Assembly: GCA_965207375.1 (NCBI GenBank)
Contig: CBDBMG010000003.1
Coordinates: 256,001-320,000, forward strand
Source: Nitrosopumilaceae archaeon
GTDB lineage: Archaea > Thermoproteota > Nitrososphaeria > Nitrososphaerales > Nitrosopumilaceae
Reading direction: 5' to 3'
DNA: 64,000 nt
Below are positions 38,207 to 59,838 of the stretch, one piece after another. Below the pieces are notes generated by a model that did no database searches, was not told the DNA's origin, and worked only from the letters and a program-made list of their open reading frames with translations. Position numbers and translations under genes: made by a program. Positions within the stretch are counted from its first letter, which is position 1, and the number at the start of each line of letters is the position of its first letter.

Positions 38207-41183
38207 ATGTCTGAGTCATCTTTTGATCATACTTGGTGTATTAGTGTTCTGAGGAGGATTGTTAGTGATCTTGCTGTTTATTCAGATGGAAGAACAATGT
38301 TTAGGAATGCATTAGATAGCTATATTTTATGCATTGAGGGTGTGTATCGCGAGTTTGTAATTGCAGATACCCTTTATGGTCTTAATAACCATGAACAGGC
38401 AGTAGTTAGTTTGCTTAAATATGCACATGAAACATTAATGTATATGTATGATCATCCAATATCAGAAGACGAACTGCACAGTTGTCCAGTAGTGCTAGGC
38501 ACAAATGGCCGGCCTAGATTTGACATTCCATTTGAACAATTGGATTGTTTATTACAAAATCATTTTACTGTTCCTCAAATTGCTGACCTACTTAGTGTAT
38601 CACAACAAACCATCTTTAGACGAATGTCAGAATATGGTTTATCTGTCAGTTCTCAATATGCAAATTTGACAGATGATGAGTTGGATTGGCTTGTTATAAA
38701 CATACAACAAGAATTTCCAATGTGTGGGAATCAACAGATGCAAGGCCATCTATTGTCACAAGAGTTCCGAGTACAGCAAAGTAGGATCAGAGAATCTCAA
38801 AGAATAACTTGTCCTGAAGGCACCATGATGCATCGCTTAAGATGTTTAGAAAGACGGGAGTACAGAGTAGCTGGACCTCGTTCTCTTTATCATATTGACG
38901 GCAATCACAAATTAATCAGGTAGACAATATGTATTTTTATGCATGGTAACTTATAGCTACTTAGCTAGGTAAGTATATTGAATAATCATGATTAGCTACA
39001 CACATTCCAAATGAATGGTATCATTTGGTGTAGCTACGTATATAGTAACTACGTATATGTAACTATCACAGATCATTTTCTGATTCATTTGGCAGAGCAA
39101 ATGTCTGATTTGGTAGGACAAATCTTCTGCATGTAGTTACATTCCAATGGGGTAACCAAATGCAATGATAGTCAGGAATAATTTTACTATAAATGACCAA
39201 CAAACTTCAAAAATTAGTAGATAATTATGTAGCTAACACTGTGGAGGAAACTAGTGCTACAAATGTGATGTTGCATAGTTGGAATAGAAAATTTAGTTAT
39301 TTAGCTATGCACACTGAAACTGAAAGTGTGCTGCAACTAGGGCTGTGCGATAATGGAAAAGTTATAATATTATCATATCTCAATAAGTCAACATGAAGAA
39401 TGTAGCTATAAACTATCAGTCAAAATGTATCCCACAAGTTAAAGTCTGTACCTATCAGGTAGCTAATATAACTGGGTTTACTTACTTTCTATAAAAGTGG
39501 GATAGTGCAGATTAAGTAGTACCGCTATTGCATAAGGTATGGCTTCCTGGCCATTATTTAGTTACAAAAATAATAGCAGTAGCTAAACACACTATTGATG
39601 TGTAATGTAGCCATAAATACTTTTGATATCGATATCATTGTGTTATTGTTATTATTGTGATAGCTACAACTCGAGCTCATGCATACATAGCTATATCAGG
39701 CAAAGCACTCTTGCCTGTATGTGTTGCAACTATTACATGTAGCTATATACCTATAGAGTATATAATTATCTAGCAATGGTGACCTAACCAAGTGCACTTA
39801 TTTCGGATCAATCACTAATATTATGTAATATAGAAACCTATAGCTGCTTATCTAATAAGGTTGTGGAAATTATCTTAAGTTATAGCTACGTATATGTGGC
39901 TATGTTGTAGTGTACCTATAGCTATACCTCCATCATGTGTTAGCCTCAAAGCTATACGTATAGTAAAATGTGCTATTCACTGAATAAATTGTATATAGCT
40001 ACTTGAAAAGCCATATAGATTTAGGTCATGCAGTTTCCTATAGTAAAATAGGTGTTAACCTGGACTTGATGTCCAGTCAAATTTAATTTGTGCATGTTTA
40101 TATTAATCATGCACTTTGGCTAACTAACTGCAAGATGCAATATCTTATGCTGGTTAGTTATGTTTATATGTTCACATATGGATATATGTATGTTTATATA
40201 GGTGGAGACTTGTTATCCACGGGTGTATCGATGGATACAGCAGAAGGATTATATACTTGCATTGCAGCGATAATAACAGAGCAGCCACAGTCCTGCAATT
40301 ATTTGTTGAACAGTTGGGTGTAACAGGACTCCCAAGCAGAGTACGAGGAGACAGAGGGGGAGAAAATGTGCAGGTTGCTTCCTTTATGATCCAGCATCCA
40401 GACAGAGGTCCTGATCGTGGCAGTTTTATAACAGGACGTAGTGTTCATAACCAAAGAATTGAACGTTTATGGCGTGATGTTTATTCACAGTGTACAATAC
40501 TATATTATCAAATTTTTTATTACATGGAAGATTTAGGCTTACTTAATATAGAAAATGAAATACATTTGTTTAGTCTACATTATATTTTTATGCCAAGAAT
40601 AAACATGTCACTAACAAAATTTAAAAATGGTTGGAATAATCATCCATTATCTTCAGCAAGATTTTTAACACCAATACAACTGTGGATTAGTGGACTGCAT
40701 CATAATACTGATGCTGAAATAAATGAGGTGCTTAACAATTTTTTAGAAACCAAATTAAAGTAGCCATGCAGTTAGCTATACATTAGAAAATAAGTATGCG
40801 TTTACATATTACAATTTGCATCAAATGTATAGCTATGTAAAAATAGGATAATGGAATGTATAGCTATGCATGTATACATTTTTCATTGGTATGTTCTATT
40901 TACACAATGCTTATAATGTGTGTATATGCTATGATATTAACGGCATAATTTTTATTAGGAAGATTTGCAGTTATACGGAATTGACTGGGATGGCCCATTA
41001 TCAACAGAAGAAGATATGACACAAGAACAAGTGAATGTACCATTAGTAGAATCTCCATTAACTGATGATGATTTTTTGGAACTTAGCCAAACCATATCAC
41101 CACTGGCTCCATCAGTCAATTATGGAATAGACTTGTACCTAACCACCCTTCATTTTATATCACTGCATACAATACAAACATAG
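38207..41183 (+). CDS. IS3EU/IS481-like DDE transposase (rve integrase core with N-terminal HTH motifs), 487 aa
   Basis: Exons 38207-38919, 40202-40727 and 40959-41183 splice in frame. Motifs: HTH ([19 protein letters not shown]), [59 protein letters not shown]. The D-D-E triad is intact. Confidence 0.9.
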
Positions 41184-41643
41184 TTATGTAGCTAACTATA
41201 GGTTTTAAATTTGTATGTATAGCTATAGCTACGTACGTAGTTGGAGTGGGTTTATAAATCTCATTGTGTAGCTATAGCTATAGCTCTCCTGTGAGTATAT
41301 AGCCATATTGCTGAGTATATAGCCATATTGCTATACACTGCATATAATATAGATAAATGCAGCTATGCACATCACATTATACCTATTGTTATTCCTATAT
41401 GCTCATGTATACATAGCTATAGTTATTATAGTGATTCATATGGTAACAATACAGCTACGTAGTCATTCATACACACGTAATAGTTACGTATATACAGGTT
41501 GTTTGCCTCATCATGATATATATGCACCTGAACTGAGGGATGAGAGTGTATATATATCATAATATTATATGTAATCATGCATGTGATAGAATATCCTCAA
41601 TGGTAGTTCATGGCCTCACTCTGTTTATGTAGACACTTGTATT

Positions 41644-58800: not shown

Positions 58801-59838
58801 TCTATACTAACAACAAAATATTTAAGTTTTAAAAAGTGGGCGTGCTGTGAGCGAAGCGTGTCGTGAGTTACTAACAAGGTCATTTGTCTCGCAGTAAAAA
58901 CCATTTAACCAGCTGACAAGATGAAGCATTTAAGCGGTTTTAAAAGTGGCCGTGCCGTGTGTATTGCGAAGCTTATAAAAGAAGACTGGCCTATAGTGTT
59001 ATGTAGTACAGTAATAATTTTGGCTTAAAACAACTTTACACAAGCAAGTAGCTAGCTACTGGAGTATAAAGTGATTTAAACTGAAGAGTTAAATTTGTAT
59101 GCGTTCCTGTGTTAGAGTCTTAGCTCACATGACTCATCTATTATATCATTATATTGGTATCCAACCACGAGGGTTTTCGTTATTATTTGTAACTTCGTTA
59201 TTATTTAAAACTTTAATTTTTACAATAATTATTTGAAACCCACAATTGATCTAAATAAGTTGCAGTACAATCAAAATCAACAAGGTTTAGTATATAAATA
59301 GCAGACAAGCAAGTGTGTTCTGTAAGTCTGTAACAGTACAGTTTGTGTGTTGTGGTGCTGTGTCTGATTGGTGAGATGTGGACCATTTTAATGACCTGCT
59401 AGCGGGTCTCTTAGTGGTTTTTAAGAACCTCATTATCTCAAAGGTCAAAGCATATTATGCATACCATTTTCTAATAGTTGTTAACATGTTGCTATGTACA
59501 TGATTTTACTTGCGTAGGAATCATCATTAAAGATGGTGGGAATCAACCCAATCCAGATGGTAATTAAGAGCCTTTCCAATTAATAGGTTGTTTAATTTTT
59601 TAATTACAGAACATATTATTACGCTTGGGACCCTCGTCACATTCTTTACAGGATCAGAATCTTTCCCCCCCTTGGATATGAAAATTTAACCATTAGCTTT
59701 AACAACACTGACCCCTTTCCAACAGCATCTACATGTGCAATGGAACTAACTCTGCCTACACAGTATCAAACCTACACAGAGTTTAAAAGCAAGATGAACA
59801 CAGCTCTCCTTTGTTACGGAGGATTTGGATACAAATAA
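46861..59838 (+). CDS. G2E3-like HECT E3 ubiquitin ligase with UBZ-like Zn finger and UIM-like motif (~780 aa); 1-nt frameshift in last exon
   Basis: Phase-consistent exons: 46861-47157, 53092-53535, 54173-54264, 54902-55163, 57045-57163, 57214-57358, 57413-57547, 57612-57788, 58039-58333, 58394-58498, 59518-59559, 59610-59838. HECT motifs: FEFAGENGIDAGGLTREFF, QFKEGLRTLGV, FFTGSE, FPTASTCAMELTLP, GGFG. Linkage of exon 1 is the least certain part. Confidence 0.82.
47881..48498 (+). mobile_element. Family B HINE-like element in HECT intron 1
   Basis: aaaccaggcacgtgcctggtttc ... gcctggtttttagatggtaaaacatcaacttgtt. Confidence 0.75.
50568..51219. mobile_element. TGTGAC...GTCACA MITE in (TA)n
   Basis: TIR tgtgactggctctgggaaaa / ttttcccagagccagtcaca; (TA)n on both sides. 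Confidence 0.85.
51955..52311. mobile_element. hAT-type MITE, 8-bp TSD GTTATTGT
   Basis: TIR tagtgctgaaa(g/c)gaata; perfect TSD. Confidence 0.85.
56179..56787. mobile_element. MITE with TACGG...CCGTA termini (~32-bp imperfect TIR)
   Basis: Left end tacggtactgctcaaaggcaatgtcgcactcg versus right-end reverse complement tacggtacagctctaaggtaacgtcgcactcg. Confidence 0.8.

Follow-up and report, generated by a model that had tools for sequence, protein, structure and literature searches.

IS3EU elements are a superfamily of eukaryotic DNA transposons (Kapitonov, Bao and Jurka 2012, cited in PMC11934779), whose structure and function could still be called "largely unexplored" in a 2025 paper (PMC11934779). 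The superfamily is now joined with GingerRoot (PMC10045372), and its hallmarks, in the parts of the literature drawn on here, are TA..TA ends with a 6-bp target site duplication (TSD) (PMC10045372) and ends of the form TAYGG..CCRTA (PMC12730594). GingerRoot elements carry inverted ends of 100-150 bp, a 6-bp TSD and an integrase-related DDE transposase (Cerbin et al. 2019, PMC6839031), and are present in corals, sea anemones and fish (PMC6839031). Fungal IS3EU families have passenger genes as well, namely an alpha-kinase and a TET/JBP dioxygenase (PMC12730594). The present work concerns another partner, a HECT-type E3 ubiquitin ligase, and starts from a stretch of 64,000 nucleotides deposited under the name Nitrosopumilaceae archaeon (assembly GCA_965207375.1, contig CBDBMG010000003.1, positions 256,001 to 320,000; G000:C4:256001-320000 in our numbering), hereafter the window. 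On its forward strand lie an IS3EU-type transposase gene (38207-41183) and, downstream, a HECT ligase gene ending at 59838, which an initial annotation had taken together as one mobile element. Our comparison with other contigs supports the view that transposase and HECT ligase of this kind form an evolutionary unit, the ligase being a regular second gene of such elements. The window itself probably holds an old, immobilised IS3EU/GingerRoot-type copy, in which both genes survive and the structure and ends have been lost.

How does this locus compare with the systems already described? The window transposase is of the IS3EU type, and its canonical relatives show the TATGG..CCATA ends and 6-bp TSDs published for the superfamily; the window copy differs in having neither ends nor TSD, and no HECT ligase figures in the published IS3EU descriptions, as far as the sections cited here extend. 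With the fungal families the likeness covers the superfamily itself, the TAYGG..CCRTA ends, the 6-bp TSD, a second gene placed opposite the transposase and the exchange of accessory genes (PMC12730594). However, the accessory gene is here a beta-grasp/zinc-finger/HECT E3 ligase instead of a kinase or a dioxygenase, and the hosts are animals (sponge-like and cnidarian-like, judging from the best protein matches and the taxa concerned). GingerRoot shares the 6-bp TSD, the inverted ends and the integrase-related DDE transposase, but its plant elements capture gene fragments and, in the sections cited, have no conserved second gene (PMC6839031). The word "HECT" does not occur in that paper (PMC6839031), nor in a DDE survey preprint.

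The evidence for a regular partnership comes first of all from canonical elements found in other contigs. These belong to seven families, range from 7.1 to 10.2 kb in length, and consist of TATGG...CCATA inverted ends enclosing two convergent genes: a three-exon DDE transposase and a ligase made of a beta-grasp domain, a C2HC zinc finger and a HECT domain. Within them, both the rva_4 and the HECT domains are confirmed by Pfam. The initial annotation had suggested comparing the flanks of several loci; ends of this kind are present in all seven families, together with a perfect 6-bp TSD in six of eight elements and five of the seven families (GTAAGG, GCTTCA, AGCTAC, GATAGA, CACAGC and CTACAC). 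Four loci, L118, L121, L122 and L124, are 97.6-99.3% identical over both genes and lie on four different contigs. In L118 the inverted arms occupy 7986-8323 and 14680-15071, and the ends read TATGGCGGGTG...CACCCGCCATA with GTAAGG on either side; L124 has the same ends at a different site, with GCTTCA as its TSD. TATGG...CCATA ends with a perfect 6-bp TSD are also found in L052, L076, L089 and L012, while L056 has such ends with a TSD matching in five bases, and L081 has them with no TSD. A profile built from eight intronless ligase open reading frames (ORFs), all of them taken from loci that contain a transposase, aligns with solved HECT domains over their full length (UBE3C, E=9.7e-13; AREL1, E=1.4e-17), the best solved relatives being AREL1, E6AP, HUWE1 and UBE3C.

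Linkage can also be measured in the DNA that surrounds the window, the origin of which needs a word. The assembly G000 is mixed and made of four contigs. C1 (2.16 Mb) matches bacterial ORFs and is bacterial in look; C2-C4 amount to 2.14 Mb at 37% GC, contain no N, and are eukaryotic and animal-host-like in look (sponge-like by best protein matches), with microsatellites, introns and repeats resembling short interspersed elements (SINEs). The best named relatives of the window transposase are from the sponges Amphimedon and Ephydatia, with cnidarians next. On account of these relatives and the eukaryotic look of C2-C4, the window is most likely sponge host DNA binned together with a symbiont genome. 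By "host contigs" we mean C2-C4, from which the larger part of the host genome is absent.

In the host contigs, each of the five Pfam HECT matches lies at most 27 kb from a transposase (rva_4) copy, and local hidden Markov models (HMMs) find a HECT piece within that distance at all seven transposase loci; C4:133-150 kb and C4:915-932 kb, which form a 98% inverted duplicate, were counted once. About 18% of the 2.14 Mb is within 27 kb of a transposase locus, so that by our own arithmetic four independent matches would all fall there by chance with a probability of about 1e-3. Other loci were taken from a scan of GTDB contigs (16 transposase loci, from symbiont bins with host DNA) and from metagenome contigs (80 loci). 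HECT pieces are present in 42 of the 80 metagenome loci, convergent with the transposase in 40, in tandem in one (L095) and divergent in one (L123); the remaining 38 are mostly short contigs. Of the metagenome loci, 32 extend at least 3 kb downstream of the transposase; a HECT gene lies convergent to the transposase and no more than 3 kb away in 26 of them, lies elsewhere in two and is missing from four. A HECT piece within 3 kb upstream is seen at only one of the 19 loci whose upstream flank is 3 kb or longer. Several of the metagenome loci are near-identical copies of one another, so these counts are not all independent. The co-occurrence that the initial annotation proposed to check is thus borne out; the usual arrangement is convergent and not the tandem order of the window.

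The two genes also share part of their history. Over 17 non-redundant pairs the distances between transposases and between HECT domains are correlated (Mantel test, Spearman r=0.38), a value matched or exceeded in 3 of 2000 permutations. The pairs C2/L022, L062/L080, locus B/L121 and L012/L061 agree in both trees; L076/L089, L094/L107 and the HECT of contig C6 of G001 disagree, which suggests that ligase genes were sometimes exchanged between lineages. The congruence of the two trees, proposed at the outset as a check, is therefore partial. These data also bear on the simplest alternative, that an ordinary host HECT gene happens to lie beside an unrelated transposase. In the window a wide gap separates the genes, 5.7 kb as far as the first ligase exon and 16 kb as far as the HECT part, and they have no common boundary, as chance neighbours might. 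Yet such a coincidence is made extremely improbable by the clustering of every Pfam HECT match of the host contigs in the small fraction of DNA close to a transposase, by the linkage at 26 of 32 loci elsewhere, by the inverted ends that enclose both genes in seven families, five of them with a perfect TSD, and by the Mantel permutations.

The transposase gene of the window is encoded on the forward strand by join(38207..38919, 40202..40727, 40959..41183), giving 487 amino acids, with GT-AG introns that were read directly. Exon 1 (38207..38919) contains an N-terminal helix-turn-helix-like region and ends in ...HIDGNHKLI(R) before the donor GT at 38920; it matches positions 4-235 of a local transposase HMM, and its protein is 88% identical to G001:C6 950-1708. 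Exon 2 (40202..40727, acceptor AG 40200-40201, donor GT 40728) carries the DDE catalytic core, recognised by Pfam as rva_4 (PF24764, E=2e-71) and rve (E=6.9e-5). The residues D10, D50 and E87, which stand in columns invariant across a 22-sequence alignment, are all kept. Exon 3 (40959..41183) holds the C-terminal GIDWDGP region and the stop codon TAG (41181-41183), matches HMM positions 413-477, and shares 70 of 73 residues with G001:C6 4088-4306. The frame is free of stops and frameshifts, so that the intact, intron-containing DDE transposase announced by the initial annotation is indeed there. Compared by eye, its motifs are those of a Repbase IS3EU subgroup, which in the alignment of the PMC10045372 supplement comprises IS3EU-1_CVi, -1_SK, -3_CGi, -3_DR, -4_DR, -6_CGi and GingerRoot AD_GR-001. 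Its predicted product is accordingly classified as a DDE transposase of IS3EU type.

The ligase gene lies on the same strand, is made of several exons, and runs from a probable first exon at 46861 to a stop at 59838. This probable exon 1 (46861..47157, +) opens with an ATG, encodes a Ser/Thr-rich N-terminus and finishes in phase 0 at a GTATGT donor (47158); it starts 5.68 kb past the transposase stop. It is a model only, without counterpart in the canonical elements. An ORF with 41% amino acid identity occupies the syntenic place in G001:C6 (17782-18126), and a 95% DNA copy is found at C4:746905-747335.

Further downstream, the exon 53092..53532 (+), at first called "ORF-X", encodes what appears to be a beta-grasp (ubiquitin-like) fold. 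Its AlphaFold (AF2) model has a pLDDT (predicted local distance difference test) score of 92.9, and a fold search with the model gave no match at E<=0.001, the best being ubiquitin-like (UBL) and Ras-binding domains (best E=6.6e-3); the name thus comes from weak but consistent fold matches. In a representative library, 1414 proteins match this domain at E<=0.001, mostly short gene calls. In 13 of the 19 loci where it has a match, the exon precedes HECT by 1-2 kb on the same strand, and among the 150 relatives listed the only two long ones (576 and 703 amino acids) run on into the finger, the HECT N-lobe and the middle region; from this placement and this fusion the domain is read as the N-terminal domain of the ligase. 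In proteins P0156 and P0226 the beta-grasp domain is fused with the zinc finger and HECT. A separate small gene, to which most library matches (130-300 amino acids) might point, was considered and rejected in view of the two long matches and the upstream placement, and the short matches are probably single-exon gene calls. Two observations on other copies concern the same exon. L118 is without about 2.5 kb (at 13954) that L122 and L124 carry, and the missing piece includes the beta-grasp exon, so that IS3EU copies otherwise almost the same can differ in internal deletions that affect the 5' part of the ligase gene. In the short contig L093 the beta-grasp exon (2727-3314, -) directly follows the transposase; no HECT piece was detected between the two, and the element may have lost an internal segment.

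The rest of the protein follows in order. The C2HC zinc finger KEKCMNCDGMIPLNDLKEHVLSC (54188..54259, +) was located by tblastn with P0125 and P0156, which themselves have a weak match, below the cut-off, to the Pfam TRAFD1/XAF1 zinc finger (E about 6e-3). The HECT N-lobe, including FEFAGENGIDAGGLTREFF, occupies 57215..57806 (+) in three exons (about 57215-57358, 57413-57547 and 57612-57806); local N-lobe HMMs match it at E=7.5e-14 and 1.3e-17, and its GE.G.D.GG..REFF motif was read directly. The Pfam HECT model alone does not reach this lobe. The middle region (58006..58503, +; two exons) was found with a local "mid" HMM (E=1e-29) and by tblastn with P0156, and the last intron of the gene contains a SINE-like fragment (58891-59064). 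The last exon (59610..59838, +) encodes the C-lobe with the catalytic Cys, TASTCAMELTLP, and the stop codon TAA (59836-59838), and matches Pfam HECT (PF00632) above the cut-off (E=4.8e-8). The spliced ligase said to follow the transposase 5.7 kb away on the same strand is thereby recovered, and the encoded protein is predicted to have a HECT domain with both N-lobe and C-lobe.

One defect is absent from the initial annotation. Inside a run of seven C (59665-59671) in the last exon, within the conserved FxTGxxxxPPxG motif, the reading frame changes; a two-frame HMM alignment places the switch inside the PPL motif. As assembled, the catalytic segment TASTCAMELTLP, downstream of this run, is out of frame with the rest of the HECT domain.

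In aquatic animals some ligases are annotated as "G2/M phase-specific E3 ubiquitin-protein ligase-like". The window protein may resemble these G2E3-like ligases, under what is a provisional label, in having a C-terminal HECT domain after zinc-binding modules and in belonging to a type with large lineage-specific gene numbers, but differs in its N-terminus, made of a beta-grasp domain and a single C2HC finger. Word-based protein searches with HECT pieces gave one weak match for window 58006-58344 and none for the L039 ORF, with no named G2E3-like homologue.

Where does the window copy belong among these elements? Its transposase, together with that of G001, is sister to canonical L052 (support 93), in a clade with L055, L110 and L056 (support 98), and its HECT falls into a clade supported at 99 with L052, L055, L076, L089 and L107. 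Each of the two genes therefore groups with one canonical lineage, that of L052 and L055. Intron positions in both genes are those of canonical elements, the HECT introns being as in L052, L056, L076 and L089. Taken together, the trees and the common intron positions trace both window genes to the same kind of element. The order is non-canonical, as the ligase stands in tandem with the transposase and not convergent to it. The same tandem order is nevertheless found in locus B (G000:C4:493204-527174), a 34-kb stretch in which transposase and HECT are 21 kb apart and both nearest to the canonical L121 family. Locus B is bounded by a unique 150-bp inverted repeat, 86% identical and starting TAATAC, without TSD, which indicates that a rearranged and bloated element can still retain its ends.

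No such ends are found at the window. An inverted-repeat blast detected none around the pair; no inverted repeat pairs 35001-38206 with 41181-90000, the family of a miniature inverted-repeat transposable element (MITE) excepted; scans of the window for IS3EU end motifs gave chance levels (two matches for 1.8 expected, and one for 0.55); and the end sequences of eight canonical elements found nothing around the pair. No TSD was found around the pair, and without ends none is definable. The initial annotation had likewise reported neither terminal inverted repeats (TIRs) nor a TSD. In canonical elements the left end is 300-450 bp upstream of the transposase ATG, and this site is filled in the window by a palindromic MITE-like repeat (37394..37764), which has some 60 matches on C2-C4 in either orientation, and by a (CA)n microsatellite (37958..38154). 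Searches likewise found no inverted ends at G001:C6, at L050, L022 and L023, or, in the host contigs, at loci C2, D and C3a.

Between the two genes, a tandem array with a period of 15-34 nt (41292..42415) directly follows the transposase and does not match IS3EU ends. It is succeeded by a second array (43006..43169), by GT microsatellites (44926-45009 and 45640-45924), and by SINE-like repeat copies at 44847-45366, 45586-46295 and 47875-48500, the two within 44847..46295 each standing after a GT microsatellite. This SINE-like repeat, 450-620 bp long, exists in well over a hundred copies, often after a GT microsatellite; its blastn depth is 65-142 matches per 500-bp bin in the host contigs, and it corresponds to direct-repeat families D11-D15. 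The rest of the gap is low-copy, with no nameable ORF, so that the statement that only repeats separate the genes is broadly correct.

These results bear on the claim that 38207-59838, perhaps with wider flanks, is an intact and mobile giant IS3EU element carrying the ligase as cargo. Such elements do belong to a family that carries this ligase, locus B is an inverted-repeat-bounded unit of the same tandem order, and the window transposase is intact. A live element is nevertheless very unlikely here: the only pairing inverted repeats belong to the MITE family, no IS3EU end motif or sequence is present, interspersed repeats occupy the gap, the ligase is frameshifted, and neither gene has a second copy at the DNA level in the 2.14 Mb of host contigs, although this last absence is weak evidence since most of the host genome is missing from them. 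The idea of one mobile unit consequently survives in part. The genes do form an evolutionary unit, as the seven TIR-bounded families, the linked loci and the trees testify, but the bounded, mobile stretch of 21.6 kb, with its tandem order and with no ends, TSD or second copy found, is not supported.

Our preferred reading, an immobilised copy descended from a single insertion, has to face several observations that tell against it, the weakness of the missing second copy being one. Because no inverted ends or TSD flank the pair, we infer a single insertion only from the phylogeny and from the habit of the family. As the frameshift falls within a homopolymer, it may have arisen in assembly; however, the internal duplicate D/D' of the contig has just five one-base gaps over 14.3 kb, which indicates that the assembly is not rich in such errors. 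The trees are only partly congruent, since L076, L089 and L107 belong to the window's HECT clade and yet fall outside its transposase clade, and, as ligases can be exchanged between lineages, the two window genes could derive from two elements. Finally, the syntenic relative of the window, G001:C6, has the same gene order and similar proteins (the transposases share 88-89% identity, the beta-grasp exons 79% and the first exons 41%), but its HECT domain is only 26% identical to that of the window and has different intron positions, so that the ligase part of the locus has no simple history. Synonymous divergence (dS) between the two is also unequal, at 0.16-0.25 for the transposase versus 0.58 for the beta-grasp exon.

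These points lend some weight to a second scenario, with two IS3EU insertions from related subfamilies, one now represented by its transposase alone and the other by its ligase alone. Ligase genes at times depart from the transposase tree, the HECT of the syntenic G001 contig is from another lineage, and the host contigs contain several fragmentary copies (for instance C3:521-523 kb and C3:706-707 kb). A sensitive scan (hmmsearch --max, E<=5), however, found neither a convergent ligase remnant downstream of the window transposase nor a second transposase downstream of the window ligase, only microsatellite artefacts. Moreover, both genes point to one canonical lineage, that of L052 and L055, and locus B shows the same order inside a single pair of inverted repeats. 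We therefore regard two insertions as unlikely.

The comparison with G001:C6 also raises the question of domestication, in which the pair, or the transposase alone, would be IS3EU-derived host gene(s) outside any transposon. The ratio of nonsynonymous to synonymous divergence (dN/dS) between the window and G001:C6 is 0.12-0.34 for the transposase, which is therefore kept by selection, and 0.23 for the beta-grasp exon; the gene order is conserved between the two contigs, and ends are absent. The two contigs may be either orthologues from two species or paralogues within one genome, and an active transposase lineage would give an equal dN/dS; DNA synteny cannot be traced beyond the gene pair, G001:C6 being bacterial after about 55 kb. 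The introns do not point to domestication, since the transposon genes had them ancestrally. Since, in addition, the ligase is frameshifted and its HECT part is not conserved between the window and G001:C6, domestication appears distinctly unlikely, even more so than two insertions.

The favoured course of events, an old insertion that was later immobilised, would then run as follows. A single IS3EU insertion would have brought both genes; the ligase gene would have been inverted, giving the tandem order; and nested repeats would have inserted between the two genes while the ends were lost or decayed. Afterwards the transposase would have stayed under purifying selection, either as a working source of transposase or through co-option by the host. 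As for the ligase, its conservation and its co-evolution with the transposase suggest that it is likely needed by the element. Presumably its target for ubiquitination would be a factor by which the host holds the element in check, or else the machinery of transposition.

Some further features of the window and of the contigs may be recorded. Near the right border of the window, an IS3EU-like end stands alone at 63358-63565 (+); it reads TATGGCATGC... and leads into subterminal tandem repeats. At C4:423418 and C4:426013 an inverted pair, matching the first 32 bases of this end at 87.5%, delimits an apparent non-autonomous element of 2.6 kb. Upstream of the transposase, at 34873-36324, an 804-bp unit is present twice in tandem (99-100% identity) and belongs to a family with more than 25 interspersed copies in the host contigs. 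Elsewhere on C4, 133539-152511 and 900001-932212 form a large inverted duplication, 97.6-98.7% identical and extending to the contig end, which reflects either segmental duplication or the reverse joining of a haplotype. Its single-exon transposase is intact in one copy and broken by a stop in the other. In its last HECT exon (C4:135013-135360 and C4:930478-930741) the catalytic Cys is replaced (TESTYALEM, TASTFALEM), so that thioester formation would be impossible for that ligase copy. G001:C6 is a chimeric contig, host-like for its first 55 kb or so and bacterial beyond.

Has this association been noticed before? Our literature searches returned no paper joining IS3EU and HECT, and none combining a transposon, a HECT domain, terminal inverted repeats and an E3 ubiquitin ligase. 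The combination of IS3EU with ubiquitin gave unrelated papers only, and G2E3 with transposase gave nothing relevant among the matches listed. Repbase entries, which possibly already list a second protein, were outside these searches. Entry names such as IS3EU-1_CGi_2p, in the part of the PMC10045372 supplement cited here, imply at least two proteins for some entries, and the family-level finding may already be recorded there.

The window copy is of lesser weight in this story: it is a decayed or co-opted example, of use chiefly in showing that the pair can outlast the loss of its ends. The wider proposal, which we put forward as possible, at somewhat under even chances, is that a major IS3EU clade, present in sponges, cnidarians and probably further aquatic animals, carries as a conserved second gene a HECT ligase of its own, which co-evolves with the transposase and is absent from the open literature. 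Many "lineage-expanded G2E3-like" genes would then be transposon genes, and the element would manipulate the ubiquitin system of its host. If this is true, the numerousness of this ligase type in some animal genomes would be explained, and annotators could reclassify the genes. With its ligase the element might dispose of a factor that restricts or silences it, or regulate its own transposase. Enzymes that act on host regulation are seldom encoded by transposons and are instructive where they occur, as with the fungal TET/JBP dioxygenases and kinases, and a HECT ligase would add ubiquitination to their repertoire. In a superfamily so little explored, the ligase would offer a testable route to the interaction between IS3EU elements and their hosts.

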